DNA of 64,000 bases from an uncultured Leptospirales bacterium (GCA_964529415.1 CAZGWD010000013.1:29466-93465); one strand, 5' to 3'; numbered from the stretch's first letter, positions 28,701 to 53,550 are shown. A program made the numbers and translations. The notes: generated by a model from the sequence alone, not told the origin.

Positions 28701-29963
28701 GACAGTTTGAAACATGCTGTTAGAAAAGCGCCGCTTTATAAAAATCTGCCTGAGTCTGTTCCAACGAGCCTTAAGGGCAGAAAATTATATATCCCGTACA
28801 TGGCAGATCACGCTTATGCTTTAAAAGCTGCTTTCAAGGGTAATGGCCTTGATGCGGAAGTTCTTCCTGAAACAGATGATGAAAGCCTTGAGTGGGGAAG
28901 AAAATATACCAACAGCAAGGAATGCTACCCGTACATTGTCACAACCGGCGATATGATCCGGAAATTAAAATCACCGGATTTCGATCCTGAGAAAACAGCA
29001 TTTTTTATGCCTGCATCGAGCAGTTTCTGCAGGCTCAATCATTATGAGTCATCGCAGAGGTTGATATTGCGCGAACTCGGTTATCCTGAAATACCGGTTT
29101 TCTCTCCTGATGCAGAGGACACGCTGTTTTCAGATCTCGACAGCGTTACCGAGGATTTCACAAAAGATGCGTGGAGAGGCGTTGTTGCAATTGATACAAT
29201 TTTTAAAGCACTTCGCGAAACCAAACCGTATGAATTGAACAAGGGCGAAACAGAAAAAGTTTACAGACGCGGCCTTGAGATGATCTGCAAAACTGTTGAA
29301 GAAAAAGGCGATCTTGTCAACACAATGAAAATAGTCCGCAGGGAATTTGATACAATTAAAACTGATAAAAGTAAAAAGAAACCTCTAATCGGCATTGTAG
29401 GTGAACTGTTCCTGAGATGGCATCCTTACAGCAATGCGCGCGTTGTTGAGCTTGTTGAGGAGCTTGGCGGAGAAGCATGGCTGCCTCCATTTTCTGAATC
29501 ATTGTATTATCTTAATGCTCTTGCAATGCATCATTCAAAGATGAAAAAAAATGTTAATGAATATTTAGGAACTTTTATTCAGGATCAGTATCAGCATATA
29601 GTTGACAAAAAACTTTCTGCAACTTTTTCCAATTACATAGTGAATTATCCTGAGCCGCGAATAAAGGATCTGTTTAAAATCAGTATGCCGTATTTCAATC
29701 CTATTGCTGAGAGCGAATCCCCAATGAGTATAGGCAAGTCGGTAAATTTTATTTCGCAGGGCGCGAGCGGTATCATCAATGTTATTCCATTTACATGTAT
29801 GCCCGGAACAATATCTGCGGCAATATTCAAGCGTTTGAAAGAGGATAACAAGGATGTGGCATTTCTTACATTGAAATATGACGGCAGCGGTGATGTTAAT
29901 ATACGCACAAGAGTTGAAGCTTTCATGCATCAGGCTGCGCAGTATGCTGATATGACGAATTAA
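25752..29963 (+). CDS. CoA-substrate-specific enzyme activase-type protein (tandem BadF/BadG/BcrA/BcrD ATPase domains plus HgdB/DUF2229-like C-terminal region)
   Basis: Two acetate/sugar-kinase-fold ATPase modules, each with GIDLGS/GVDVGS and the [4Fe-4S]-helix motif MNTLCAAGTGAFLEQQA / MNKVCAAGTGSFLEEQA. They are followed by ~800 aa with a CxxC...C region. Total length 1403 aa. Confidence 0.85.
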   Translation: MANINAAESRFFIGIDLGSVTVKVVLLDSGKNVLEKFYLRHKGHPGQELLKILEGLLDKYPAEKIEAIGITGSGGKRLAKVLGGVFINEVISETIAVSSLYPAVKTIINIGGQDSKLILVDGKAEPGKFILENFSMNTLCAAGTGAFLEQQAARLGISIEDEFGDMALKSKNPPRIAGRCSVFAKSDMIHLQQKGTADYDIVAGLCYAMARNFKATIGKNMKFEKDVAFIGGVARNKGMVKAFEDVLEIGEGSLVIPENNALIGAIGAAYNVIDRTDLEFIGLGEIRKYLKELVDLDKGHEPLFLREDHLLSKEETIEFHKPGEKVNAYLGVDVGSISTNVVLIDEKKRVLAKAYLRTGGKPIDAVKRGLQEISNDIGDYVNIIGACTTGSGRYLTGDFIGADLVKDEITAHARGAIEIDKDVDTIFEIGGQDSKYISIENGAIVDFEMNKVCAAGTGSFLEEQAERLGVSIQDEFSDLALCAKDPSRCGERCTVFMESDLVHHQQKGAQKEDIIAGLSYSIAYNFINKVVEDRRIGNHIFFQGGVAYNKGVVAAFEKVTGKLVTVPPHHEVMGAFGAALLAMDNDQGVVSRFKGFDCTKTEYKITTFECHHCTNFCTINRVLIEGEGDFYYGSRCDRYDIKKSEKVRHNVPDYFAERDDLLRNTYSKTVPEGKVKARIGIPLSMTIYEDYPFWKAFFTEIGCEPVLSDPTNRKHINSGLETVVEEICFPMKVLHGHVIDLIEKKVDFIFMPQMIELNNTNPDIKGSFLCPYVQGMPDVIRTAFDFDKIGIPILRPVIKFTLGTSFLENELHKSIGKKVGVRKGKIKKALKTAFSSLEKFTASVQEAGEKALSEIKKDEIAVVIVSRPYNGCDRGINLDIPRKFYNLGIKAIPMDYLPLNSFSVAKELPNMTWWFGQRILSAAKIIRTNPNLYPVYITNFACGPDSFIIQYFRYLIGNKPTLYLEIDEHSADAGIVTRSEAFIDSLKHAVRKAPLYKNLPESVPTSLKGRKLYIPYMADHAYALKAAFKGNGLDAEVLPETDDESLEWGRKYTNSKECYPYIVTTGDMIRKLKSPDFDPEKTAFFMPASSSFCRLNHYESSQRLILRELGYPEIPVFSPDAEDTLFSDLDSVTEDFTKDAWRGVVAIDTIFKALRETKPYELNKGETEKVYRRGLEMICKTVEEKGDLVNTMKIVRREFDTIKTDKSKKKPLIGIVGELFLRWHPYSNARVVELVEELGGEAWLPPFSESLYYLNALAMHHSKMKKNVNEYLGTFIQDQYQHIVDKKLSATFSNYIVNYPEPRIKDLFKISMPYFNPIAESESPMSIGKSVNFISQGASGIINVIPFTCMPGTISAAIFKRLKEDNKDVAFLTLKYDGSGDVNIRTRVEAFMHQAAQYADMTN

Positions 29964-36810: not shown

Positions 36811-37155
36811 ATGAAAAGAGATAAACGCAGCAAAAGGGACGAAGGAGTTGTCTCCTGGCCTGGATTTTATGGTGATGATTCTTTTATAAATAGAGAAAAG
36901 AACAGGGCAAGAGAACTCAGGCAGTCTGCATGGTGGAAGAAGAAAATTTCATATGGATTATGCTACTACTGCGGCGGAAAATTTTTACCCTCGGAACTTA
37001 CCATGGATCATAAAATTCCGCTATCTAAAGGCGGAAATTCCGATAAAGAGAATATCGTTTGTGCGTGTAAAGAGTGTAATAATAAGAAGAAATATATGCT
37101 TCCTGTAGAATGGGATGAATATATGAATAAGATAAAGGGTGATGTAAATGGCTGA
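36811..37155 (+). CDS. HNH endonuclease
   Basis: CYYCGG...LTMDHKIPLSKGG...ENIVCACKECNNKK, the HNH Zn-finger/His-Asn-His core, in a 114-aa protein. Confidence 0.75.
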   Translation: MKRDKRSKRDEGVVSWPGFYGDDSFINREKNRARELRQSAWWKKKISYGLCYYCGGKFLPSELTMDHKIPLSKGGNSDKENIVCACKECNNKKKYMLPVEWDEYMNKIKGDVNG

Positions 37156-39607
37156 AAACGGAGGAGAGCTTTATAAAAAAGGCAGAGTCCTGGTAGTTCA
37201 GGGAACTGCTTCTGGCGATGTTTTCATGCTGCAGGACGGGACAATTGAAATTTTAACCGGCCCCCGGGAATATAATGGACTTGATCAGGATATAGTAATA
37301 TCAAAAAGCAGAAGAGCGGGAATTATTTCCGGAAAAACAGCACTTGTCGGATTCAGCAGAAATTTAAATGAACCATATTGCGCAACATTCAGAGCTTTAA
37401 CAGATTCAACAGTATCAAGGTATTCTTTGCGCGGCGGCGGTTTCAGAGAGCTTGCCTCATCTGATATTGGAACTGCAGTTCTTATATTGAGAAATTTATA
37501 TTCGAGACTAACCACTTCTGTTGCAGACTCTGTTAAATATGCAAAATTATACCAGAATGTCAGCAGAGTTGATGATAATATTGCGCTGATATACATGGCG
37601 CTCGGGATGCAGAAGGCATCAAGCGATCTTCATTCAACTGCAGACAGCATGCATAAACTTTATAATGCGCGCGGAGGCAGATTTCCTCAGATGTTTGATG
37701 GAAATTTTCTGGTTGCGGATAATGGAAAGTTCCTGAATAAAAAATATGAAGCACCGAAAATTACTGCTGATTCACCTGAGGGGCGCAGAAATCTCGAAAT
37801 ATTTAAAGGCATTTTGAAGCTCGATGCAGGCATACTCAAGGCAATGTTCAATTCTGATCCGACTATTGCTGCAAATATTTTCTCAGCAATGACAGATGAT
37901 TTATTGGCTGCTATTGAATCCATATCAGCAATTCTTGAATATATTGATAATGAAATGACTTCTCTGTTCGGAAGTGCAGGCAGCTGGGCCTCTTATCTTA
38001 TTGATTCGACGGGTCTTGAAGACTGGCTGTTGACCGGCAGGGTTTCGCAGGATTTTATAAGGCATGTGCTTTCAATTGTTTCAAAGATATCAGCAAACTA
38101 TGATGAACTTTCAGGTAAAAGATCAGCGGATTATTTTTCAGGAATTAAAAAACTCCAATCATATGTTCCGAGATCCAAAGAGCCTGAACGTTCTTCTGCA
38201 GGATCATCTTTTGATGAACCGGCACAGATGCGGTCTCCTGCCATACATGCTTCAGGAGACGCAGGTGCTTTAAAGCAGTCGCTTCAGCAGATTTATGAAT
38301 TTGCAGTTGTAGACAAAGAGTTTCAAACAAGGTTCAGCTCGCTTTTAAACGATTTTAAAAAGCAGGCTAATCCTCTTGCCACTGAAGATGAGCCAAGAAA
38401 GCTCAGACGTCAGATAGCCAAACTGTACTGGGATTTGTACAAGAGCGTATATCTGAGATCAAGAACTGAAAGTTCCACGCCCCGTTCTGTAAAATTCATG
38501 CTGAACTACGGGTTCCTTGACGAAACTCTTGTAGACGGCCAGATGATTGCCGAGCTTAATGAAATTACAAGAAGAAGGGAACCTGAATCAGATAATATTT
38601 TTTATGAAGAGGAATTTATTGATTTAATCTATAAGCAGATTGAAGAGCCCAGTATAACTGAAATGGGGCTGAATTACCAGGCACATTTAAGGGAAATTGA
38701 AAAAAGCACGAGTAAAAAAGACAAGCGCGTTGATAATTATGAAGATAATGTTAAACAGGTATTATATGAAATTGAACAGAGAGTTACATCAACATGCGCT
38801 GTCTGCTCAGGTTCAACTTCAACTGCTTTTCCAATACTGAATTCCATGGCAACAAAAGGCTCGCTTGTGCAGATGTACACTTCCAAAAATAAAATACATC
38901 AGGCGCTTAAAGAAATAGTGAATATTGACTACTCCGCATTCTACAGGGAAACTGTTTTAAAAATAGGTGAAGCAAGGGAAATTATACAGGAGGAAATAAT
39001 TCCATATATTATTATTCTTCCTATATCCGGATCTAAGATGCTGCTCTGGCAGGAAATGTCCGGCATTAATAAAAGAAGCAGAGGAAGAATTGTTGTTCCG
39101 GTTTTTTTCATGGGAGATTTTATGAAAAATCTTGCATATTCAATAGCATCATTCAGATGGGAGCTCAATAAAACCATTAAGGGCGGCATGTGGGCAGACC
39201 CGGTTGAGGGCGGTATATCCGGAGAATATTTTGATTATGTTAATACATATAAAAAGAACAGCAGGCTTACTCAGGAAATGAAAGAAAAAATTACTGAACG
39301 TTTCAAAAGCCTTCGAACCAACCGGGACAGATTTGCAGATGATTATCTGCAGTGGATTTTTAATGAAAAAGACGGAATAATGAAACTTAATGTTGTTGTC
39401 AGGGAAATGTTTTATAAACATGTTCCTTTCAGAAAAGAGGTCAGAGACAAACTTGAGGGTATGCCTGCTTACACTCAGATGTCATCAAGGTATAAAAATA
39501 TCAGTGCAAGAAATTATGCCGCATATGAGCGCAAATTCAAAAAATATCTGGATGCAGGCGGATATCCTGAAGAGATCCAGAATTATATGAATTTTCTGAA
39601 ATTGTAA
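37148..39607 (+). CDS. hypothetical large protein (819 aa), possible N-terminal cNMP-binding-like (CAP effector) domain
   Basis: The start overlaps the HNH stop by 8 nt. The N-terminus YKKGRVLVVQGTASGDVFMLQDGTIEIL...IISGKTALVGFSRNLNEPYCATFRALTDSTVSRY resembles the beta-roll of cyclic-nucleotide-binding domains. The rest is unrecognised. Confidence 0.5.
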   Translation: MAENGGELYKKGRVLVVQGTASGDVFMLQDGTIEILTGPREYNGLDQDIVISKSRRAGIISGKTALVGFSRNLNEPYCATFRALTDSTVSRYSLRGGGFRELASSDIGTAVLILRNLYSRLTTSVADSVKYAKLYQNVSRVDDNIALIYMALGMQKASSDLHSTADSMHKLYNARGGRFPQMFDGNFLVADNGKFLNKKYEAPKITADSPEGRRNLEIFKGILKLDAGILKAMFNSDPTIAANIFSAMTDDLLAAIESISAILEYIDNEMTSLFGSAGSWASYLIDSTGLEDWLLTGRVSQDFIRHVLSIVSKISANYDELSGKRSADYFSGIKKLQSYVPRSKEPERSSAGSSFDEPAQMRSPAIHASGDAGALKQSLQQIYEFAVVDKEFQTRFSSLLNDFKKQANPLATEDEPRKLRRQIAKLYWDLYKSVYLRSRTESSTPRSVKFMLNYGFLDETLVDGQMIAELNEITRRREPESDNIFYEEEFIDLIYKQIEEPSITEMGLNYQAHLREIEKSTSKKDKRVDNYEDNVKQVLYEIEQRVTSTCAVCSGSTSTAFPILNSMATKGSLVQMYTSKNKIHQALKEIVNIDYSAFYRETVLKIGEAREIIQEEIIPYIIILPISGSKMLLWQEMSGINKRSRGRIVVPVFFMGDFMKNLAYSIASFRWELNKTIKGGMWADPVEGGISGEYFDYVNTYKKNSRLTQEMKEKITERFKSLRTNRDRFADDYLQWIFNEKDGIMKLNVVVREMFYKHVPFRKEVRDKLEGMPAYTQMSSRYKNISARNYAAYERKFKKYLDAGGYPEEIQNYMNFLKL

Positions 39608-41308: not shown

Positions 41309-41680
41309 ATGAAATTCCTGATTATTGACGATTCAATGGTTATACGTTCTATACATAAAAATGTGCTGAAAGACAACAACATCAATGATGCTGATATTTT
41401 TGAAGCTGAAAACGGTAATACTGCAATTGAAATCGCCCAGAAGGAGGATATAGGACTCTTCCTTGTTGACTGGAACATGCCTGGGCTAAACGGCCTGGAA
41501 TTCGTTAAAAGAGTAAGATCATGGCCGAAATATGCAGAAACTCCAATCATAATGGTCACATCAGAGGCAGCCAAGTATAATGTCATGGAAGCCATAGATG
41601 CAGGTGCCACCAACTACATTGTCAAGCCGATTCACGGCGATTTGCTGTGGAGTAAAATATCCAGATATGTTGTATCATAA
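41309..41680 (+). CDS. cheY: CheY-like single-domain response regulator
   Basis: MKFLIIDDS...LFLVDWNMPGLNGLEF...YIVKPI with all receiver hallmarks in 123 aa. Confidence 0.85.
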   Translation: MKFLIIDDSMVIRSIHKNVLKDNNINDADIFEAENGNTAIEIAQKEDIGLFLVDWNMPGLNGLEFVKRVRSWPKYAETPIIMVTSEAAKYNVMEAIDAGATNYIVKPIHGDLLWSKISRYVVS

Positions 41681-41695
41681 CCTGAGGAGCAGACT

Positions 41696-42154
41696 ATGAA
41701 AGCTGAATATATAAACCCTTTTCTTGAAGCATCAATAAATCTTTTCAGAGAGCATTTAAAGTTTGATATTAAAAATACTACCCCGTATATCAACCAGGAT
41801 TCACAGAATCTTAATGAGGTATCTGCCATAATAGGCCTTGCCGGCGATATAGCCGGTGCTGTTGTTCTCAGCTTTACGCGTGAAACCGCGATCGCAATGG
41901 CATCCCGTTTCAGCGGCCAGACGTATCATGCTCTGAGCAAGGAGGTTATTGATGCAGTTGGTGAGCTTGTGAACATCATTGCAGGCAATGCAAAGAAAGA
42001 CCTGCTTGGATTCCGTATTGAAATATCCCTTCCCGGAGTTATCACAGGAAATACATATAAAATCAACTGGCCTCATGGAGTACCGGTTATTACAATTCCA
42101 TTTGAGTCGGATGCCGGAATTTTTTCAGTTAACGTTTCATTTAAGCAGCGATGA
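41696..42154 (+). CDS. cheX: CheX/CheC-family chemotaxis phosphatase-like protein
   Basis: INPFLEASINLFREHL N-terminus and GDIAGAVVLSF...ELVNIIAGNAK, typical of CheX. It starts 16 nt after cheY. Confidence 0.7.
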   Translation: MKAEYINPFLEASINLFREHLKFDIKNTTPYINQDSQNLNEVSAIIGLAGDIAGAVVLSFTRETAIAMASRFSGQTYHALSKEVIDAVGELVNIIAGNAKKDLLGFRIEISLPGVITGNTYKINWPHGVPVITIPFESDAGIFSVNVSFKQR

Positions 42155-44196
42155 GCACCCGAAGTCAGCTCCCGAGACTCAAGTTCATTCATGTTGCAAA
42201 GGGATTTCCCCGCGACCTTGAAAAAGATTATTATGAGGATTTTTTCCGTACATCCCTGCTGATCGTCCGTGTAGCTCTTATCCTCGGCATTGCCCTTTAT
42301 TCTCTTTTCGGCATTCTCGATATCTGGGTTGTTCCCCTGAATAAAAAAGCAGTATGGATTATCAGGTATGCGGTGGTATGTCCTATGCTGGGTGCAGCAT
42401 TGCTTCTGACCTATTTCGATATTTTTAAAAAGTACATGCAGGTCACTCTGTCTGCAGTCGGTTTTTTATCCGGATTCGGTATTGTGCTCATGATCGGATT
42501 TACTGCAGAAACGGAGCTCGGTTTTAAATTTTATTATGCAGGTCTGATGCTTGTTCTCATGTGGATATACGCACTTGTACGGCTCAGGTTTATTTATGCC
42601 ACGCTAATAAGCTGGGCAATTACTGTTTCCTATGAAATTGTAGCACTCGGTATTAATAAACTCCTCAGCACTCCTGATAATGTCACGGTCTTTATCAACA
42701 ATAACTTTTTTTTCATATCAGCCAACATAATAGGCATGTTTGCAAGCTTTACTATTGAATGGTATATGAGGAAGAATTATCTTCTGAGAATGGAAATCGA
42801 GAGATCGTATAATCTCAATAGAAAATATCTTGAAAACATCAGAGAAGGTCTTCTTCTCATAGATGACAGCTACACTATTCTTAATCAGTATTCTTCTTAT
42901 CTTCCCGTAATGTTCAGCAAAAATGAAATTGAGGGAATGAACTTTATTGATCTGGTAATGCCGGACCCGGAAAACATGAAACAGGAGAGAGCTGATCTCG
43001 AAAGATTTTTAAATTTTCTTTTTCATAATAAATCTGCAGATATTGACATGATCATGGATCTTAATCCGTTTGTAAACAGGCAGATCTATGTCAGTAACGG
43101 ATCCGTTGTAAAAGAACTTATCATCAATGCAGATTTTATCCGGATTCAGGATAGGGGCAGTGTAGAATTCGTCATGGCAATATTCCAGGACATGACTGAT
43201 ATAATGAAATTTGAAAAGCAGCTGGATGATCAGAAATCAAAACACCTGCAGGAAGTCGAAACAGTCACTGCAATACTCAGGTCCGGGCCGAAACTGTTCA
43301 GCGATTTTCTTAAAGAATCAGGAGAGATTCTTGATGATATCAGATCAAAAAGCAGCGACCTCGGCAGTTCAGAAACGCTTAATCATGTTTTCAGAGAGGC
43401 GCATTCACTAAAAGGTTCGGCAAAACATCTGGAGCTGAATCATATTTCTTCTACAGCGCATGCAATTGAAGATTTAATGGCGGAAATAAGAGACAGCTCC
43501 GGTTCCAACATAGCAGGGAAAAAATCTGAAATTGACAGGCTTATATCAGATCTCTTTAAAAACTTTGATGAACTAGGAACACTCATTGAAAAAATTTCCA
43601 TGTTCTCTAATCTCGGAAAAAGCAGAGCTGCTGAAAGTACGGAAAATCCGCTTAACGATTTTATTACATCCCTATATACGATGGTAAATAATCTTGCAAA
43701 AGAACTTGATAAAGATGTTCATCTGGTTATTGACAACAAGCTTACGGATGTTCCGTTTCTTGCTAAATTAAAAAATCCTATTATACATCTTATCCGGAAT
43801 TCTCTGGATCACGGGATTGAAGATAAATTTGAGAGACTGACATCAGGAAAAAATCAGACAGGAATAGTTTCAATATCTTTAAATGAAGATGCAGAGAAAT
43901 ATTATATTGAAATTTCTGATGACGGAGCAGGAATTGATTTTGATGCTGTGCGGAAGAAGGCTGAATTATTAGGCTTGCTGCCTTCCGGAGAAAAACCTGA
44001 AAAATCAGCACTTGTGAAGCTTTTATTCACTCCGAGTTTCAGTTCAAAAAACAAGGTAACTGAAATTTCAGGAAGGGGATACGGCCTGGATATTGTCAAG
44101 GTTGCAGTTGAAAGCCTTGGCGGGCAGATATCTGTTAAATCTGCCAGGGGTAAAGGTTCCAGGCTGATTATTTCTGTACCGAAAAATAATAGTTGA
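42151..44196 (+). CDS. membrane-bound CheA-like histidine kinase (6-TM sensor + Hpt + CheA-type HATPase; no CheW/P5 domain)
   Basis: Six N-terminal TM helices. The Hpt motif is FREAHSLKGSAKHLE. The CheA-P4-like ATPase has IHLIRNSLDHGIE, ISDDGAGID and GRGYGLDIV. The protein ends right after the ATPase. It overlaps the cheX stop (ATGA). Confidence 0.7.
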   Translation: MSTRSQLPRLKFIHVAKGFPRDLEKDYYEDFFRTSLLIVRVALILGIALYSLFGILDIWVVPLNKKAVWIIRYAVVCPMLGAALLLTYFDIFKKYMQVTLSAVGFLSGFGIVLMIGFTAETELGFKFYYAGLMLVLMWIYALVRLRFIYATLISWAITVSYEIVALGINKLLSTPDNVTVFINNNFFFISANIIGMFASFTIEWYMRKNYLLRMEIERSYNLNRKYLENIREGLLLIDDSYTILNQYSSYLPVMFSKNEIEGMNFIDLVMPDPENMKQERADLERFLNFLFHNKSADIDMIMDLNPFVNRQIYVSNGSVVKELIINADFIRIQDRGSVEFVMAIFQDMTDIMKFEKQLDDQKSKHLQEVETVTAILRSGPKLFSDFLKESGEILDDIRSKSSDLGSSETLNHVFREAHSLKGSAKHLELNHISSTAHAIEDLMAEIRDSSGSNIAGKKSEIDRLISDLFKNFDELGTLIEKISMFSNLGKSRAAESTENPLNDFITSLYTMVNNLAKELDKDVHLVIDNKLTDVPFLAKLKNPIIHLIRNSLDHGIEDKFERLTSGKNQTGIVSISLNEDAEKYYIEISDDGAGIDFDAVRKKAELLGLLPSGEKPEKSALVKLLFTPSFSSKNKVTEISGRGYGLDIVKVAVESLGGQISVKSARGKGSRLIISVPKNNS

Positions 44197-44221: not shown

Positions 44222-45664
44222 ATGACTATAAATGAAGAAAAAATTACAAGTCAGATAATGAAAAATTCGATCAGGTTTTCAGGTGAACTTGAAACGCTTT
44301 TTCATGAGGATTATTTTCTTAAATCTCTCGGCTCTGTAAGAAAGGCTCTTCTGCTTGCTTTTATTCTCTACGCATCTTTTGGTTTTCTCGATCTGATGAT
44401 TACGCCGCTTAGCAGCAGTCACACCTGGATTATCCGTTATGCAATTGTATGTCCTGTAATACTTGCTGCATATATAATGACTTATTTTGAAATATATGCC
44501 AGAATATCCCAGTATGTAATAAGCGCAGTTGCTCTAACTGCAGGATTCGGTATTCTCGGAATGATTTTTTTCGCTGTAGAAAAAGAAGGCAAACTGTATT
44601 ACTACGCAGGCCTGATCCTCGTAATAATGTGGAGCTATACGCTTGTCCGCATGAGATTCAGATATTCCACAATCACAAGCTGGACCATAGTTGCAGGTTA
44701 CGAATTGATGACTGTAGTTCTGCAGAATCTTGTTTCAACGCCGGATCTATACCCGAGTTTTATTAACAATAATTTCTTTTTTATTTCATCAAATATTATT
44801 GGAATGATGGCAGGTTATTACATTGAACTTTTCAGCAGAAAGGATTTTCTACAGCGCCTCCTGATTGCTGAAAAGCAGATAAAACTGACAGATGAAAGAA
44901 ACGAACTGAGTTCAAGAATGAATATGATGAACAAAGAACTTAATATGACCAGGATAATTCAGGAGCAGCTTATTCCGCTTGAACATCCGGGGGATTTTAT
45001 ATTTTCACTGTATAAGCCGATGGAGGCAGTTGGAGGAGATTTTTTCGATTTTATAAAATTCAGGGAACCTGACATAATTGGAATTTTCCTGAGCGATGTT
45101 TCAGGACATGGCGTACCTTCTGCTCTCATTACATCTATGGTGAAGGTTACTCTTCTTGAATCCAACAGATACAAGGATGATCCTGCAAAAATTCTGGCGC
45201 ATCTTAATGATCTTCTGGTGGGAATAAGCGGAGGGCATTTTATAACAGCATTTTACGGAGTTTTCGATATGAAGGAAAAAACTCTGGTTTATTCAAATGC
45301 AGGCCATTATCCGCCAATGCTGATTAGCGGAGGTGAGATATTGAATCTTGATAAGGCGTCAACTCTTCCCCTGGCAGTTTTATCCAATGATGAATTAACA
45401 AGCGGCAGTCAGATGTTTGAAAATGCCAGAGTAAAACTTCCGGATCAAGGGAAACTCTTTCTGTTTACAGACGGGCTTGTTGAGGCGAAAAATATTTTTA
45501 ATCCCCAGAATGATTTTTCGAGCATTCTTGACGGGATTTTACTTAAAAATATAGATCTTCCGGCAAAAGAGTTCATCAACGAGCTGTATAAAGAGCTAAT
45601 TTTATATAGAGGCTCTGAAAATTTTAATGATGATATCTGCATGATTGCTCTTGATCTGAACTGA
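44222..45664 (+). CDS. SiaA-like membrane PP2C (SpoIIE-type) phosphatase with the shared 6-TM sensor domain
   Basis: The N-terminal TM domain is paralogous to 42151 (IIRYAIVCP, YYAGLILVIMWSYTLVRMRF, FINNNFFFISSNIIGM). The C-terminal PP2C has LSDVSGHGVPSALIT and LFTDGLVEA. Confidence 0.7.
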   Translation: MTINEEKITSQIMKNSIRFSGELETLFHEDYFLKSLGSVRKALLLAFILYASFGFLDLMITPLSSSHTWIIRYAIVCPVILAAYIMTYFEIYARISQYVISAVALTAGFGILGMIFFAVEKEGKLYYYAGLILVIMWSYTLVRMRFRYSTITSWTIVAGYELMTVVLQNLVSTPDLYPSFINNNFFFISSNIIGMMAGYYIELFSRKDFLQRLLIAEKQIKLTDERNELSSRMNMMNKELNMTRIIQEQLIPLEHPGDFIFSLYKPMEAVGGDFFDFIKFREPDIIGIFLSDVSGHGVPSALITSMVKVTLLESNRYKDDPAKILAHLNDLLVGISGGHFITAFYGVFDMKEKTLVYSNAGHYPPMLISGGEILNLDKASTLPLAVLSNDELTSGSQMFENARVKLPDQGKLFLFTDGLVEAKNIFNPQNDFSSILDGILLKNIDLPAKEFINELYKELILYRGSENFNDDICMIALDLN

Positions 45665-45790: not shown

Positions 45791-46288
45791 ATGGAGTCAT
45801 TCATGTCTGTAAAATTACAGAAACATATTACCTCGCATTGGGATGAAATTGAACAGGCCAGGGAAGACACACGGATTTTCATGAAATCGAATGACTATAC
45901 AGAAGATATTACTGATGCAATTATTATGGTAATCAGCGAACTTCTTGAAAATGCCGTCAAGTATGGTGTATTTACCTCATCTAATGAAGGCATAGATTAT
46001 TCAATTGAAGTGCACAAAGAAGCTATAATAGTAGAAGTGATTAACCCCTATGATACAGTTGCCCTGAATAATTTCAAGAGAATGGATAAAATAATACAAT
46101 GGATCCGCGGTTATCAGAATCCATTTCAGGCCTATATTGAAAAGCTGAAAGAAATTTCAGGAAGATCGCTTGAAGACAGGGAGAGCGGACTTGGGCTGGT
46201 GCGGATAGCATATCAGGGCCGGTCAATTGTTGATTTTTATCTAAGAAATGACAACAGGATATCCGTATCTGCAGTTTATCAGATATGA
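45791..46288 (+). CDS. SiaB/RsbW-like GHKL serine-protein kinase
   Basis: N-box ISELLENAVKYG and G-box ESGLGLVRIA. The ~165-aa size is typical of anti-sigma-type kinases. Confidence 0.55.
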   Translation: MESFMSVKLQKHITSHWDEIEQAREDTRIFMKSNDYTEDITDAIIMVISELLENAVKYGVFTSSNEGIDYSIEVHKEAIIVEVINPYDTVALNNFKRMDKIIQWIRGYQNPFQAYIEKLKEISGRSLEDRESGLGLVRIAYQGRSIVDFYLRNDNRISVSAVYQI

Positions 46289-46309
46289 TTTTAGTTAAAG
46301 GATTATAAT

Positions 46310-46669
46310 ATGAAAACCCATGCCAGCGATCTGCTGAAAATTGAAATTGACGAAAGCAAAGACAGCATTTTGATAAAATGGCTTGGAAAAAGTACGGCAC
46401 GCGATCCCGGGGATTTTATTATTCCAATACTCACTGATGAACTTAAAAAAGCCGGAGGTGATATCCACGTAATACTTGATTTCTGTGATCTTGAATACAT
46501 GAATTCATCTACAATGACTCCTATATCAAAAATTCTCGAGAATGCCAGATCCGGAAAATCCCGTGTATCAATTCATTACAGTAAATCGGTAAACTGGCAG
46601 GAGCTGAATTTTTCAGCTTTGAAAATATTTGAAACCAAAGACAAACGCATTGAGATATCCGGTAGATAA
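46310..46669 (+). CDS. SiaC-like (DUF1987-like) partner-switch target protein
   Basis: 119-aa protein. ILDFCDLEYMNSSTMTPISKILE resembles the SiaC phospho-site region as I recall it (…LDLRLLYLNTSSIKAMMDILD…). Gene order matches siaA-siaB-siaC. Confidence 0.5.
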   Translation: MKTHASDLLKIEIDESKDSILIKWLGKSTARDPGDFIIPILTDELKKAGGDIHVILDFCDLEYMNSSTMTPISKILENARSGKSRVSIHYSKSVNWQELNFSALKIFETKDKRIEISGR

Positions 46670-46671
46670 AA

Positions 46672-48060
46672 ATGACAGCAAAAGAAATATATGATGGCGT
46701 TTTACTCACTGATAACGGAAATATACAGGTTAAAATAAAATATATATCCAGAGTGACCGTTTCTGTGGATTTTCCTGATGACAAAAAGTTTCTGCACGGT
46801 GATGAATTCAATGGACTCATACTTTCATTAGGAATCGATTTTCATGAATTCGGTAGATGCAGGTACATTGTATCAGAGGGAAAAGGAAAATCATCCGGCA
46901 GGCTTGTTTTTCTAAATGATATTTATGATTTCAACTGCCTTTTTTTTGAAAAAAAAATTGTTTCACTCGACAGTTTTCATAATAATCTGGCGCTTATTTT
47001 TTCACAGAGGGATAATCTCAATGAGTCATTTGTAAAATATGTTGCTGACCTTACCTTTGATCTGAAAGTTTACCGTCATTTTTTTAACGATATCGATGCA
47101 AAATATTTTAATGAGGATGAAAATACAAAATCCATTCTTTTCAATGTGGTTCTTGAAAAGGAAGGCAGGAAATTCCTTGATTTTCTTGATGAAAAACTTA
47201 AGGATCTGGAACGTGTAATTGCAGATTTCACCAGAGAGGATCACAGGCTTCACGGATTTTATCTGAGGAAGCAACTGTGGGATGTTATCGAGTGTTCTGA
47301 ATTCATGCTGCACTGCAATCTAAGACCAAGAGGATACGCCGGCGACTCGGAATTGATGAGGATGATATATGAAAATGATTACAGGGGCGATTCAACATTC
47401 TCTAAAATTTTTTATAAGTATTCGCTGGATCATCCCGGAGCAGTAGCTGTCAGAAACAGAAAAATACTGATACCTGAATATCTCAAATCAGTGGCAGGCA
47501 GCAGCAATTTTAAAGGCGGGATCTGTAAATTCATGTCAGTTGCTTGCGGCCCTGCGTATGAGCTGACAGATATTTTTATCAATTCAGATGATATAAAAAA
47601 ATATAATTGCACGCTGCTTGATCAGGACTCTGAAGCGCTTAAAGAAGCTGAAGATAATATCAGAAATATTGAAAAGAAACTCGGAAGTACAATACAAGTC
47701 AAGTATCTTGAGGATTCTGTCCGTACCATGCTTAGAACTCCGGACCTGTCAGCGCAATGGGGGCGTTTTAATTTTATATATTCCATGGGGCTTTTTGACT
47801 ATCTTGCTCCTACTGTTGCAAAAGCTGTAATAGAAAAAATTTATGATCTTCTCGAGCCGGGCGGGCAGCTTCTCATCGGAAATTATCATCTCCTGAATAA
47901 AAGCAAGTGGTTCATGGAATACTGGCATGACTGGGTGCTTTATTACCGCTCGGAGGATGAATTCAAAGCGATTTTGAAAGATACCAATGCAGTTGATATC
48001 GCTATACGCATAGACGACTCGGGCAGCCAGATGTTTTTAAGTGCGAAAAAACCGGAATGA
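46672..48060 (+). CDS. protein with C-terminal class I SAM-dependent methyltransferase-like domain (N-terminal ~270 aa unknown)
   Basis: Motif I FMSVACGPAYELTDIF, the acidic motif II LLDQD, IYSMGLFDYL, and the LLEPGGQLLIGNY motif. It starts 2 nt after the SiaC-like gene. Confidence 0.5.
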   Translation: MTAKEIYDGVLLTDNGNIQVKIKYISRVTVSVDFPDDKKFLHGDEFNGLILSLGIDFHEFGRCRYIVSEGKGKSSGRLVFLNDIYDFNCLFFEKKIVSLDSFHNNLALIFSQRDNLNESFVKYVADLTFDLKVYRHFFNDIDAKYFNEDENTKSILFNVVLEKEGRKFLDFLDEKLKDLERVIADFTREDHRLHGFYLRKQLWDVIECSEFMLHCNLRPRGYAGDSELMRMIYENDYRGDSTFSKIFYKYSLDHPGAVAVRNRKILIPEYLKSVAGSSNFKGGICKFMSVACGPAYELTDIFINSDDIKKYNCTLLDQDSEALKEAEDNIRNIEKKLGSTIQVKYLEDSVRTMLRTPDLSAQWGRFNFIYSMGLFDYLAPTVAKAVIEKIYDLLEPGGQLLIGNYHLLNKSKWFMEYWHDWVLYYRSEDEFKAILKDTNAVDIAIRIDDSGSQMFLSAKKPE

Positions 48061-48097
48061 ATTACCTGACAGGACATTTAAAACGGCAGGCGGAATA

Positions 48098-49450
48098 ATG
48101 GCTGATAGCAGCAATATCGATCCGGAAAAAAAATTTTATAACAGCAATGATTTTAATGAATACCTTATAGGGATTATTCATGACTGGTCAAAAACTCTGA
48201 CTACTCTTGCCTATACGCTTGTTCCTCTTTTTTTTATACTCGATTATTTTACTATGCCCCGGGAGCTGCTTCCCCGCTTCGCGTTCTACCGGGTTATTGC
48301 AACCATTATTGCGCTGATCCAGTATATTGTAGTTAAAAATACAAAACCCAGTAAAATTTCATACGTTCACGGTTATCTTGTTTCATTGATTCTCGGCGGT
48401 GTAATTGCACTAATGACTGTTGATCTCGGAGGATTCAGTTCCGGCTATTATGCTGGACTAAATCTTGTTATAATAGGTGTGAATATTCTTCTTCCATGGG
48501 AGACTTACCATTCCGCCATCAACGGACTCATGACTATACTGATGTATGTTGTTCTTAATGTGGTTTTTGGCGGGAATTTTAATGCAAATGATTTAACCAG
48601 CAATCTTTTTTTTATGAACGCGACTGTTATAATCTCTGTAAGCATTAATCTTGTACGCAGCAAGCTCATAAAAAGAGAGTTCGCTCTGCGCTCGGAAGTT
48701 CAGAATGCAAGGGACGCCCTGTGGGGAGAAATGGAAGTAGCGAAAAAAATTCAGACATCGCTGCTTCCTAAAAATAAACGAATCGGCAGTTATGAAATGG
48801 CGGCACTTATGGAACCCGCAGCAGAAATTGGTGGCGATTACTACGATGCTGTTGAAACAAATGCAGGTGAAAACTGGGTTATGATAGGAGATGTTTCAGG
48901 TCATGGAGTTGAGTCAGGGCTTATTATGATGATGACACAAACGAGTATATTTTCAATTATCAATGACACCCCGGGACAACGTCCAATGAATGTAATTAAT
49001 AATGTTAATTCTGTTATCCGGAAAAATATTTCCAGACTTGGTTCAAACATGTATATGACCCTCTTTGCTATTAGACTTGAAAATGATTCTGTGATGCTGG
49101 CAGGAAAACATCAGGATATAATAATTTACAGGGCAAAGTCCGGAACAGTTGATGTAATACAGGTTCAGGGTACCTGGATCGGTCTTGCGGATGATATTGC
49201 TCCTTTTCTGAGTGATATAAAAATTGAAATTTTCGAAAACGATATCATGCTTCTTTTTACTGATGGAGTTACAGAAGCCATGAACGATAGTGGAGAAATG
49301 TTTAATCAGGACCGTCTCATTGCTTTATTTAAAATATATTCATCTTTATCTCCTGAAAATATTGTCAGGAATATTGCTGAAGACATAGGTAAATTCCAGA
49401 AAAAACAGTATGATGACATAACACTTATAGCACTGAAAAAAAACTATTAA
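48098..49450 (+). CDS. membrane PP2C (SpoIIE-type) phosphatase, divergent paralog
   Basis: The ORF is listed from 48041, overlapping the previous gene by 20 nt. The ATG at 48098 (MADSSNID) is preferred. There are six TM helices (YYAGLNLVII) and a PP2C with IGDVSGHGVESGLIM and LFTDGVTEA. Confidence 0.65.
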   Translation: MADSSNIDPEKKFYNSNDFNEYLIGIIHDWSKTLTTLAYTLVPLFFILDYFTMPRELLPRFAFYRVIATIIALIQYIVVKNTKPSKISYVHGYLVSLILGGVIALMTVDLGGFSSGYYAGLNLVIIGVNILLPWETYHSAINGLMTILMYVVLNVVFGGNFNANDLTSNLFFMNATVIISVSINLVRSKLIKREFALRSEVQNARDALWGEMEVAKKIQTSLLPKNKRIGSYEMAALMEPAAEIGGDYYDAVETNAGENWVMIGDVSGHGVESGLIMMMTQTSIFSIINDTPGQRPMNVINNVNSVIRKNISRLGSNMYMTLFAIRLENDSVMLAGKHQDIIIYRAKSGTVDVIQVQGTWIGLADDIAPFLSDIKIEIFENDIMLLFTDGVTEAMNDSGEMFNQDRLIALFKIYSSLSPENIVRNIAEDIGKFQKKQYDDITLIALKKNY

Positions 49451-49595
49451 ACCATATTAAAAAATTTTCTTAACAAGCATACAGCATTTTGAAAACAAAG
49501 TTTATTTTATTGTCTGTAAAACAAGTAAGATTCTTGACATATTTTCATGATATGGATAATATAAATAAAATTAAACGGTTATTACAGGAGTTCCA

Positions 49596-49988
49596 GTGAG
49601 TATTGAAGTTGAAATTATAAAAGTTACAGCTGTTTCGATTGATATAATAGATTATAATATACTGATCTTCAAAATCAATCCGGAAAAAAGAATTAATTCG
49701 GATAACTCCAATGAACTTTGGATAATTCTAAATACTCTTATTGACGCCGGAGTTAAGAAGATTCTTGTTGATTTAAAGTTAGTGGAATATATTGACAGTT
49801 CCGGTATCGGCATTTTTATTAATGCGACAAAAAAAGTACGGAAGAAACAGGGGGATCTGGTTCTTGCCAATACATCCAAGGAAATAAAGGAAATTTTTAA
49901 AGTAATCAACCTCCAGAATTTCATTAAAATATATAATACAGATACGGAAGCATCTAATTATTTCAGGCTCTCTTTCCCTTCTGAATAA
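49596..49988 (+). CDS. STAS-domain anti-sigma-factor antagonist (SpoIIAA/RsbV-like)
   Basis: ILVDLKLVEYIDSSGIGIFINATKKVRKKQGDLVLANTSKEIKEIFKVINL is a canonical STAS with the conserved phosphorylatable Ser in DSSG. Confidence 0.75.
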   Translation: MSIEVEIIKVTAVSIDIIDYNILIFKINPEKRINSDNSNELWIILNTLIDAGVKKILVDLKLVEYIDSSGIGIFINATKKVRKKQGDLVLANTSKEIKEIFKVINLQNFIKIYNTDTEASNYFRLSFPSE

Positions 49989-52107: not shown

Positions 52108-53550
52108 ATGAAAACAGAATATTTAATATCCAAATCCGGATCCAAATTTTCTATGAAATTTTCCAGGGAACTTGAATCTGATTTTGAGAACTTTTATTTT
52201 GAAAAATCAATCCTGACAACAAGAATAGCACTTATACTTGGAGCAGTTTTATATTCGCTTTTTGCGTTTCTTGATATCTTGATTGCTCCAATTGAAATTC
52301 ATAAAATCTGGATTATTCGTTTTCTGATAGTGGTTCCGCTGCTTGTTCTTTTATTCGCAGCAAGTTTTTTTAATGCTTTCAGGAAATATATGCAGTCATT
52401 GACAGCTTTGGTTTCAATGGCTGCAGGACTCGGGATTCTGGCAATAATATCAATAGCTTCTGAAGCGGAAGGCAAGTTCTATTATTATGCAGGTTTGATT
52501 CTTGTTATAATGTGGACCTACACCCTGGTCCGCCTCCGCTTTATTTATGCAACAGCAGTATGCTGGATTCTTGTTATTATTTATGAATTGATCAATTTAT
52601 TTTATTTTCAGGTGTTTGAAACAGGCGATACGCGCAAGATTTTTTTTAACAATAACTTTTTTTTTATTTCATCAAATATTATAGGCATGTTTGCAGGATA
52701 TTTACTGGAACTATATACAAGAAATGATTTCCTGTATAAAATTAAACTTTCTGAAAAGCAGAAAGAACTGCAGAAAGACCGCGATGAGTTGAAAGCCAAC
52801 AATGAGCGTTTCCAGAGCGATCTGGAAATGGCAAGATCGCTTCAGGAATATCTTCTGCCAATGAAAAGCCCTTATCCTTTCATAAATTTTCTTTATAAAC
52901 CCATGGAAGAGGTAGGCGGGGATTTATACGATTTTATTGCATTTAATGACGGTGAAAGAATCGGGTTATTCATCAGCGATGTTTCCGGCCATGGGGTGCC
53001 TTCTGCATTTATCACTGCAATGATTATTACCGCAATTCACGACCTGGACGAAATAAAACATAATCCTGCTGAATTTCTTCTCAGGCTCAATGATGCTCTT
53101 CATAATCTGATAGAGGAACATTATGCCACTGCTTTTTACGGAATATATAACCTGAAAGAAAAGAATCTTGTATATTCAAATGCCGGACATCCACCGCCTA
53201 TACTTTTTTCAAATGGAGTAATTAAATTGATCGAAGGCGGAAAGAGCAAACCACTTGGAATTTTTGATTCGGATACGCTGAAAAAAATGAATTCTCATTA
53301 TAACAACGCTGAAATAAAATTTCAGTCAGGTGACAGAATACTCATTTATACAGACGGTATTATTGATGCAAAAAATGTAGTCACCCGGGAAAGGTATTCC
53401 AGTATATTAGCAGATAGAATTATTGATTTTTCAGGTCTTTCTTCTAATGAGTTTCTTCAGATCTTATTCAATGATATTATTTCATTCAGCGGAAATAATA
53501 AACTTGATGATGATATATGCATGATGTGTCTTGATGTAGAGAAAGAATAA
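52108..53550 (+). CDS. SiaA-like membrane PP2C phosphatase with the shared 6-TM sensor domain (third paralog)
   Basis: The N-terminal TM domain matches 42151 and 44222 (YYYAGLILVIMWTYTLVRLRFIYAT, FFNNNFFFISSNIIGMFAGY). The PP2C has ISDVSGHGVPSAFIT and IYTDGIIDA. Confidence 0.7.
   Translation: MKTEYLISKSGSKFSMKFSRELESDFENFYFEKSILTTRIALILGAVLYSLFAFLDILIAPIEIHKIWIIRFLIVVPLLVLLFAASFFNAFRKYMQSLTALVSMAAGLGILAIISIASEAEGKFYYYAGLILVIMWTYTLVRLRFIYATAVCWILVIIYELINLFYFQVFETGDTRKIFFNNNFFFISSNIIGMFAGYLLELYTRNDFLYKIKLSEKQKELQKDRDELKANNERFQSDLEMARSLQEYLLPMKSPYPFINFLYKPMEEVGGDLYDFIAFNDGERIGLFISDVSGHGVPSAFITAMIITAIHDLDEIKHNPAEFLLRLNDALHNLIEEHYATAFYGIYNLKEKNLVYSNAGHPPPILFSNGVIKLIEGGKSKPLGIFDSDTLKKMNSHYNNAEIKFQSGDRILIYTDGIIDAKNVVTRERYSSILADRIIDFSGLSSNEFLQILFNDIISFSGNNKLDDDICMMCLDVEKE

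Follow-up and report, generated by a model that had tools for sequence, protein, structure and literature searches.

The window analysed in this study is a 64-kb stretch (64,000 nucleotides, one strand) of the genome of an uncultured Leptospirales bacterium, and positions are counted from its first letter. At 41309-44196 it carries three same-strand genes that encode a chemotaxis-like module: a CheY-like receiver, a CheX-type phosphatase, and a membrane-integral histidine kinase whose catalytic parts, judged from their closest matches, are CheA-derived. The module is real and far beyond chance. A first-pass annotation made from the sequence had placed the three genes here, and the open reading frame (ORF) listing and the Pfam matches agree with it. 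The features of the operon are as follows.

41309-41680, + strand: cheY-like gene, single-domain receiver of 123 residues (Pfam Response_reg, E = 6.6e-26)
41696-42154, + strand: cheX, predicted CheY-P phosphatase of 152 residues (Pfam CheX, E = 1.2e-25)
42151-44196, + strand: histidine kinase of 681 residues with MASE8, PAS-like, Hpt, and P4 domains, without P2, P3, and P5
41099-41126, + strand: sigma-70-like promoter candidate, TTTACA-16-TATAGT (consensus scan, 10 of 12 matches)

The translational coupling described in the first-pass annotation was correct as to the ATGA overlap of the kinase start with the cheX stop (42151-42154), whereas the gap between cheY and cheX is 15 nt (41681-41695) and not 16 nt. 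Ribosome-binding sites are present in the operon, including GGAGG 7 nt 5' of cheY, and the kinase gene closes with a double stop, TGA TAA. All motifs quoted in that annotation (FREAHSLKGSAKHLE, IHLIRNSLDHGIE, ISDDGAGID, and GRGYGLDIV) were found in the translation. The best NCBIfam models for the three genes were CheY, CheX, and CheA, all under the equivalog cut-offs. The promoter candidate sits in a 319-nt AT-rich spacer 5' of cheY and is a pattern match alone; promoter and terminator scans are weakly informative in AT-rich DNA, with 49 promoter-like sites in this case against 32.5 expected. The GC content of the region (ca. 0.37-0.39) is ordinary for the window. Hereafter, the loci and the protein compared with the window triad are labelled L001-L116 and P0001, and residue numbers are those of the 681-residue kinase unless stated otherwise.

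We modelled the kinase with AlphaFold2 on 23 orthologues. The mean predicted local distance difference test score (pLDDT) was 77, and the predicted template-modelling (TM) score was 0.42, at which the inter-domain geometry is unreliable. The following parts were assigned from the N- to the C-terminus.

42151-42816, + strand: MASE8 integral-membrane sensor domain, residues 1-222 (precomputed Pfam PF20968 on relatives, AlphaFold2)
42817-43194, + strand: PAS-like alpha/beta domain, residues 223-348 (AlphaFold2 topology, conserved family-wide)
43195-43284, + strand: long connecting helix between the PAS-like domain and Hpt, residues 349-378 (AlphaFold2)
43288-43608, + strand: CheA P1-type Hpt four-helix bundle, residues 380-486 (Pfam Hpt, E = 4.5e-13)
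43609-43647, + strand: disordered linker of 13 residues (487-499), where canonical CheA has P2 and P3 (AlphaFold2)
43648-44196, + strand: CheA P4-type ATP-binding kinase domain, residues 500-681 (phmmer, Foldseek, hhalign)

The catalytic half closely resembles CheA. The Pfam Hpt match spans residues 382-455, and every natural PDB match of this domain is a CheA P1. The predicted phospho-acceptor, His418, lies in the second Hpt helix (codon 43402-43404). H418, K421, H437, and E440 do not vary among the 23 orthologues and align with H48, K51, H67, and E70 of Salmonella CheA. This His/Lys/His/Glu network of CheA P1 is needed for phosphorylation by P4. The linker that follows has a pLDDT below 50 at residues 488-497. 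The P4 domain is ca. 37% identical to canonical CheA P4; phmmer matched it to the P4 of Thermotoga maritima CheA at 1.7e-36, whereas class I kinases reached just ca. 1e-4, and Foldseek gave target TM-scores of 0.8-0.89 (root-mean-square deviation, 1.8-3.4 Å). Pfam HATPase_c matched residues 543-679 (E = 2.5e-16). Alignment with the T. maritima P4 revealed the N box HLIRNSLDHGIE, the G1 box DDGAGID, the F box LFTPSFSSK, and the G2 box SGRGYGLDIVK, all of them invariant in the 23 orthologues, and N550, H554, G555, E557, D590, G592, G641, G643, and G645 are invariant in 39 representatives of the wider family described below. AlphaFold2 places the ATPase fold at residues 500-677. The protein ends at residue 681, with the double stop four residues past the fold, and the kinase does end right after the ATPase, as first noticed.

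In the N-terminal half, AlphaFold2 predicts six long membrane helices (residues 21-59, 65-86, 91-117, 123-141, 147-167, and 175-229), the same number of transmembrane helices as in the first-pass annotation. The loops between them are only 4-7 residues long, and the sixth transmembrane helix (TM6) runs on as a cytoplasmic helix to ca. residue 229. PF20968 (MASE8) appears in the precomputed Pfam annotation of the 92%-identical P0001 and of all orthologues, and is also annotated in relatives with SpoIIE, HisKA, GGDEF, HD-GYP, or cyclase outputs. The middle domain has a PAS-like topology of two strands, four helices, and three strands (residues 232-347). Pfam gave a weak PAS_9 match alone (E = 0.018), and Foldseek aligned ca. 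480 columns of the model to PAS/LOV-histidine-kinase structures. S248, N305, P306, and T349 are invariant in the 39 family representatives.

Pfam searches of the kinase, which matched Hpt and HATPase_c, gave no match to the HisKA family, and none to PF01584 (CheW/P5) or PF02895 (H-kinase_dim, P3), on the C-terminal half not even at E <= 10. Since a survey of CheA warns that P3 often escapes HMMER (PMC10782961), P3 was tested in three further ways, by AlphaFold2, tblastn, and hhalign. Five canonical CheAs having P3 and P5 and one methyl-accepting chemotaxis protein (MCP) were used as tblastn queries against the whole 64 kb in all frames. They matched only the Hpt and P4 of the kinase (43291-43596 and 43501-44181), and no remnant of P3, P5, or an MCP was found elsewhere in the 64 kb. 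When the orthologue alignment was compared with a 20-member canonical CheA alignment using hhalign, residues 500-681 alone aligned with canonical P4 (E = 5e-50). The match begins with the first helix of P4 and extends as far as the conserved 'PLTLA', with which the P4-P5 linker opens. A hidden divergent P3 is ruled out by the 13-residue linker of the AlphaFold2 model and by the start of the hhalign match at residue 500. A CheW-like C-terminal domain, sought by Pfam, by tblastn in any frame, and by profile-profile comparison, was not found either. The first-pass annotation had described the kinase as lacking P5, which is right, and the kinase is more reduced than it stated, with P2 and P3 also missing.

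No CheW-like or MCP signalling sequence was detected by tblastn anywhere in the 64 kb. Pfam scans detected no CheW, MCPsignal, CheB, or CheR among the large ORFs of 24.6-64 kb, the 1-24 kb part being unscanned for CheB and CheR. The earlier remark that no other che genes lie nearby holds window-wide for CheW and MCP, and within 24.6-64 kb for CheB and CheR.

A whole-database search retrieved ca. 31 full-length relatives of the kinase with 48-92% identity, all of 678-691 residues and all with the MASE8-Hpt-HATPase_c content. The named hosts among them are uncultured Spirochaetes, and the public annotations read 'HPt domain-containing protein' or 'CheA'. The orthologues align collinearly over their whole length, and in the genome with the 92%-identical protein (GCA_964392365.1, L001) the gene order is the same over 20 kb. 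The identical window protein is also present in public sequence collections, on an NCBI contig of 93 kb. The word-indexed profile search returned only this MASE8 subgroup and then canonical CheAs, with full-length members at at least 612 bits and canonical CheAs at no more than 288. We then scanned 1.84 billion representatives with residues 369-681 using HMMER. In ca. 50 cluster representatives, Hpt, linker, and P4 matched as one stretch ending at the C-terminus, whereas canonical CheAs matched in two to four stretches with P4 internal. The core of the family is PAS-like-Hpt-P4, it comprises ca. 39 clusters at 50% identity, and its N-termini fall into four types.

11 of 39 representatives: polytopic, MASE8-like
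18 of 39 representatives: two transmembrane helices around a periplasmic region of 160-400 residues, then HAMP
8 of 39 representatives: ca. 73 cytoplasmic residues alone
2 of 39 representatives: one transmembrane helix

HAMP matches numbered 19 in all; the HAMP-type members had not been retrieved by the word-indexed profile search. The distant loci L008, L009, L010, and L058 were among the matches listed in a profile scan of genome contigs, in which canonical CheAs dominate. L008-L010 are named as Breznakiellaceae and Treponemataceae. L058 (5503-7494) encodes a cytoplasmic member of 663 residues with an extra N-terminal PAS, in the metagenome-assembled genome 'Proteobacteria bacterium SG_bin7'. 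The description of the protein as a membrane-integral kinase was borne out and can be extended: the predicted sensor is a named domain, MASE8 by the precomputed annotations, and the kinase is a member of a larger family with interchangeable sensor modules.

The three genes are kept together in unrelated surroundings. The triad is present in L001, L002, L004, L005, L006, L008, L010, L088, L089, and L091, and the flanks differ: L002 has an ABC transporter as well as MotAB, L004 an MCP together with a phosphorelay cluster, L005 a NUDIX/ArsP region, and L006 a radical-SAM region. In the HAMP-type L088 and L089/L090 and the cytoplasmic-type L091/L092, the order is receiver-CheX-kinase with the genes overlapping or nearly so. 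In L008, cheY-cheX is convergent to the kinase, and in L010 the order is kinase-cheX-receiver. For a systematic count, metagenome contigs were scanned with a PAS-like plus Hpt profile, and the 31 loci with the full core were searched with the window proteins. cheX adjoins the kinase in 28 of the 31 loci and cheY in 25; at the other three cheX-bearing loci (L098, L101, and L113), cheX runs up to the contig end, on the side where cheY is expected. The three loci that have neither gene are uninformative: L093 and L099 begin inside the kinase gene, and L107 is cut at its 3' end, with neither gene found in its 2.6 kb of upstream sequence. cheX and cheY lie upstream on the same strand in 21 loci and convergently downstream in seven. 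No P3 or P5 match was obtained by tblastn in any of the 31 loci, and the complete kinase ORFs end 0-12 residues past P4. Since there are near-duplicates among them (e.g., L104/L105 and L115/L116), the 31 loci are not 31 independent events. Conservation of the triad across very different genomic contexts supports the view, already taken in the first-pass annotation, of a CheA-type kinase that works outside a chemoreceptor array.

The predicted catalytic residues of both partner proteins are intact. For the CheY-like protein, the best NCBIfam match and the top 50 PDB matches are CheY, led by H. pylori CheY1 at 9e-25, and the top PDB matches are the motor-binding CheYs of H. pylori, E. coli, Salmonella, and Vibrio. 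With the enteric CheY equivalog NF007901 it scores 89.6 bits against a cut-off of 189, which makes it CheY-like but not an equivalog. D7, D8, D54, T84, Y103, and K106 of the window protein correspond to D12, D13, D57, T87, Y106, and K109 of E. coli CheY, and the predicted phospho-acceptor, Asp54, is encoded at 41468-41470. In the tight group formed by the triad CheYs, D12, D13, D57, and K109 never vary (E. coli numbering), position 87 is T or S, and Y106 is kept. At A90, I95, V108, K119, and K122 of E. coli CheY, which we take to be its FliM-contact positions, the triad CheYs have A, V, V/I, K, and R/K, all conserved or conservative. For CheX, PF13690 gave 89.8 bits against a cut-off of 27 (E = 1.2e-25), and PDB CheX structures of Desulfovibrio, Borrelia, and Thermotoga matched at 7.5e-18 to 1.8e-11. 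E90-x2-N93, in the E-x2-N active-site motif of CheC/CheX/FliY, and P113 are invariant in eight triad CheX proteins.

Downstream of the kinase lies a series of genes for membrane-anchored phosphatases and other signalling proteins.

44222-45664, + strand: MASE8-SpoIIE (PP2C) phosphatase of 480 residues (Pfam SpoIIE, E = 8.1e-37)
45791-49988, + strand: partner-switch-like cassette (Pfam, NCBIfam), made up of the next five genes
45791-46288: slr1658-like GHKL protein
46310-46669: slr1659-like small protein, possibly STAS-like
46672-48060: methyltransferase-like protein of 462 residues
48041-49450: second membrane SpoIIE phosphatase
49596-49988: STAS anti-sigma antagonist
52108-53550: third MASE8-SpoIIE, 45% identical in the MASE8 part

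Only 25 nt, without any terminator-like site, separate the kinase stop from the first phosphatase gene, which is probably in the same transcript as the kinase. Its MASE8 is 51% identical to that of the kinase (E = 4e-62), of which it is a paralogue. Three membrane-anchored SpoIIE/PP2C genes thus lie within 10 kb (44222-45664, 48041-49450, and 52108-53550). The 48041 protein is only distantly similar, with 23% identity over 232 residues. The same sensor domain has expanded locally and is fused to enzymes of opposite classes, a His kinase and Ser/Thr phosphatases. The cassette resembles, in gene content, a SiaABC-type partner switch with an additional methyltransferase-like gene. This gene was considered as a candidate CheR and rejected, as its match (17.7 bits against 27, E = 0.0026) stands among equal matches to generic class I methyltransferases. 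It overlaps the 48041-49450 gene (GTG start) by 20 nt, which suggests translational coupling; since the corresponding SpoIIE gene of L001 is called 19 codons shorter (450 residues, without the overlap), it is doubtful which start is the real one.

The MASE8-type triad has the cassette or a MASE8-SpoIIE gene as a neighbour in L001, L005, L006, and each of the six metagenome loci of this type (L093-L098), although L006/L097 and a few other loci are the same contigs. The arrangement of kinase followed by MASE8-SpoIIE recurs in L001 and L094, and the cassette stands beside the triad in L005, L006, and L095-L098. In L010 the cassette directly precedes the kinase, which occupies the cassette position held by SpoIIE elsewhere. 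The cassette lies at 1357-5503 in L005, 2817-6471 in L006, and 3746-7944 in L010, with methyltransferase-like proteins of ca. 460-500 residues. No PP2C or cassette match was found near the HAMP-type triads, nor in L002 and L004. Genes related to motility or cyclic di-GMP were seen beside triads once or twice each, which is suggestive but lacks statistical support: MotA/MotB directly downstream in L002 (10336-11967), FliG ca. 4.3 kb upstream of the triad in L088 (1-817), an MCP divergent to the triad in L004 (5225-6793) and another ca. 6 kb away in L006, and PilZ-domain genes by the triads of L005 (559-891) and L006 (10055-10408).

We compared the module with known systems. The core of canonical CheA is P1-P3-P4-P5 (Berry, Andrianova & Zhulin 2023, PMC10782961), and in that survey every one of 13,673 CheAs had P1, P3, P4, and P5, and none a sensor domain. 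The survey took its CheAs from the MiST database (PMC10782961), where proteins without a CheW-like domain would presumably go uncounted as CheA. The window kinase shares with the CheA of E. coli and T. maritima the P1-type Hpt network, the P4 fold, and, presumably, a stand-alone CheY as its target. Unlike them, it lacks P2, P3, and P5, has its own MASE8 and PAS-like domains, and shows no link to cheW, MCP, cheB, or cheR genes. Because P3, P5, and the lack of a sensor domain all fail as features, we do not file it as CheA. The CheA3 and CheA4 of R. (Cereibacter) sphaeroides offer a precedent for CheA function without some of the canonical domains (PMC10782961). However, both retain P5, sit in the cytoplasmic array, and together have the full domain set, whereas here P1 and P4 are in one chain that has no P5 and carries its own sensor. 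The order of sensor, PAS, helical linker, His bundle, and ATPase is that of class I sensor kinases such as YF1 and LOV-HK chimeras, and the interchangeable N-terminal sensors (MASE8, or a periplasmic domain with HAMP) are also a likeness to these. The kinase is nevertheless not class I because it has no HisKA. Its His is on a monomeric four-helix Hpt of the CheA P1 type and not on a dimeric DHp, and its partner is a CheY with a CheX phosphatase and not a transcription factor.

The cheA2-cheW3-cheX-cheY3 operon of Borrelia burgdorferi, whose CheX-CheY3 complex has been solved (PDB 3HZH), resembles the window operon in its partners. In both operons the phosphatase is CheX and not CheZ or CheC, and cheX lies next to cheY in one transcript with the gene for a CheA-type kinase. 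The window CheX is homologous to Borrelia CheX (3hzh_B, 4.9e-16). The window operon differs in having no cheW, a membrane-integral kinase without P3 and P5, and the order cheY-cheX-kinase. The neighbouring cassette is comparable to SiaABC(D) of P. aeruginosa and to RsbK/RsbM/RsbY/RsbV/RsbW of B. cereus in bringing together a membrane PP2C, a small GHKL kinase-like protein, and a STAS-like substrate. The MASE8-SpoIIE proteins give sub-threshold NCBIfam matches to SiaA (E = 2e-11 and 9e-14; 43-51 bits against 700). The cassette differs in having no gene for a diguanylate cyclase or a sigma factor. The likeness to the B. cereus system extends to the methyltransferase-like gene in the cluster. Open-access full text, including surveys of CheA diversity and of the CheW domain and a paper on the organisation of two-component systems, yielded no description of a P5-less, sensor-fused CheA-like kinase, the subscription literature not being covered.

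From these observations we consider it fairly probable that the triad is a self-contained CheA-type pathway, independent of arrays and of methylation, in which a sensor would drive the formation of CheY~P and CheX would reset it. The first-pass annotation had likewise proposed a membrane-integral, P5-less kinase signalling to the adjacent CheY with CheX as the phosphatase; the gene content and its conservation support this, while the phosphotransfer and the target of CheY~P are what we infer. The six-helix MASE8 would sense a membrane-associated cue directly. Since loops this short leave no room for a periplasmic ligand pocket, the cue probably arises within the membrane or from a membrane partner. 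The signal would travel via the TM6 extension, then the PAS-like domain and the connecting helix, and would control the phosphorylation of His418 on the attached P1-type Hpt by the P4 ATPase. The phosphoryl group would then move to Asp54 of the co-transcribed CheY-like protein, and rapid dephosphorylation of CheY~P by the co-transcribed CheX would give a fast-resetting signal. Because P5, CheW, MCP, CheB, and CheR are absent, neither array coupling nor methylation-based adaptation is expected. The most likely target of CheY~P, as far as the receiver sequences suggest, is the flagellar switch of the spirochete. We favour the motor because the receiver has a CheY-specific surface, the reset is of the CheX type, the hosts are spirochetes, and MotAB, FliG, or an MCP are occasional neighbours. 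The triad could then serve as a direct input from membrane state to motility alongside canonical chemotaxis. The same cue is probably read by the adjacent MASE8-PP2C and partner-switch-like cassette, whose Ser/Thr output would be slower.

Several points weigh against this interpretation. Without P3, the trans-autophosphorylation usual in the CheA dimer is not to be assumed; either cis phosphorylation across the 13-residue linker or dimerisation via the membrane and PAS parts must be. The motor target rests on surface residues and a few neighbours, and most loci have no motility genes nearby. A local hmmscan of the N-terminal 219 residues gave no match even at E <= 10, so the MASE8 assignment rests on the precomputed annotations. 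L058, in a genome labelled as proteobacterial, is the one clear member with no adjacent cheY or cheX; the family therefore reaches beyond Spirochaetota, and the triad is not universal. Finally, MASE8-type triads are linked far more consistently to PP2C and partner-switch genes than to motility genes, which could mean a non-motility output.

Such an output remains the main rival because of this consistent linkage in the MASE8 subgroup, although we regard it as rather unlikely. The phosphotransfer would be the same, but CheY would act on the Ser/Thr partner-switch machinery or another non-flagellar target and would govern gene expression, biofilm formation, or envelope physiology, in the manner of chemosensory systems of 'alternative cellular function'. 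In its favour are the MASE8-SpoIIE genes and cassettes by the triads of the window and the loci named above, the substitution of the kinase for SpoIIE at the cassette of L010, a SpoIIE gene that follows the cytoplasmic-type kinase of L091, and the PilZ genes of L005 and L006. On the other hand, the HAMP-type members keep both CheY and CheX with no PP2C or cassette matches nearby, so the cassette is not needed for triad function, and the MASE8-type loci L002 and L004 also do without it. Additionally, Y106 and the residues that contact FliM are retained in the triad CheY, which is most similar to the motor CheYs, and a fast reset by phosphatases of the CheC/CheX/FliY type is typical of motility control.

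The remaining alternatives concern the kinase itself. It might be an auxiliary array kinase, recruited by its membrane or PAS-like domain through contacts with MCPs or CheW encoded elsewhere; the MCP genes of L004 and L006 do mean that these spirochetes have canonical chemoreceptors. We think this improbable, as P5 and P3, the array-building elements of CheA, are absent from the kinase, the window holds no cheW or MCP gene, an MCP neighbour occurs in just two of more than 35 loci, and the family has bona fide sensor modules that are interchangeable as in ordinary sensor kinases. Equally improbable in our estimation is a phosphorelay node in which Hpt would relay phosphoryl groups from the receivers of other kinases and the P4-like domain would be regulatory or inactive. 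Hpt domains are generic relay modules, ATP turnover by this kinase is only a prediction from its sequence, and CheA3 of R. sphaeroides is an example of a CheA paralogue with a dead kinase domain (PMC10782961). However, the ATP-binding boxes are invariant in the 23 orthologues and nine P4 residues in the 39 representatives, Hpt has the CheA-specific catalytic Glu/Lys/His network, and no receiver domain is fused to the kinase. An artefact has a negligible probability, whether a frameshift, an assembly error, or recent decay is supposed to have truncated a canonical cheA. Nothing was found in its favour, and the conservation data refute it: the ca. 31 orthologues, down to 48% identity, share the length and the end of the window kinase, ORFs across the family stop at the same point past P4, the stop here is double, no coding remnant of P3 or P5 exists in any frame of the window, and canonical CheA has nothing that corresponds to the N-terminal MASE8 and PAS-like domains. 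Two of the 31 metagenome homologues (L100, 1260-3473, and L110, 2299-3894) have internal stops before P4, with P4-coding sequence still following. These interruptions are probably sequencing or assembly errors, and could be pseudogenes.

Textbooks present CheA as a kinase that does no sensing of its own and is controlled, through P3 and P5, only within large arrays of receptors, CheW, and CheA. The window kinase is a hybrid that combines CheA chemistry and CheY/CheX partners with the input logic of an ordinary sensor kinase. We propose, as a possibility that falls somewhat short of an even chance, that it belongs to a new class of CheA-derived 'receptor-kinases', in which P1-P4 has been freed from P3, P5, CheW, and MCP, has interchangeable sensors and a dedicated CheY and CheX, and provides an array- and methylation-independent tactic or motility input. 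Such kinases may be monomeric and cis-phosphorylating, and the MASE8 subgroup may read one cue as a fast His-Asp and a slow Ser/Thr output. If active, the kinase would be a minimal system, accessible as soluble fragments, for studying how a sensor controls the P1-P4 step without arrays or dimerisation, and would mean that CheY/CheX motility-type signalling can run without MCPs or adaptation enzymes. It would also give a first functional handle on the uncharacterised MASE8, via two outputs encoded side by side. Censuses that define chemosensory pathways by the CheW domain would miss such pathways.

Other parts of the window showed further features. The GC skew is positive in 31 of the 32 2-kb bins over 1-64000, with the cumulative skew rising monotonically, and the majority of genes are on the + strand; judged from skew and gene strand, the window is probably part of the leading strand of a single replichore. 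Upstream of the triad, a small HNH endonuclease gene (36811-37155, 114 residues) overlaps by 8 nt the start of a gene for an 819-residue protein (37148-39607), which has no family assignment besides a sub-threshold N-terminal cNMP-binding match (E = 6.5e-5; 23.3 bits against 27.5). This odd combination is kept in L001. Further upstream, 25752-29963 encodes a 1403-residue fusion of BcrAD/BadFG-type ATPase domains with DUF2229 (CoA-enzyme activase type), which is ordinary for anaerobes and suggests an anaerobic lifestyle.

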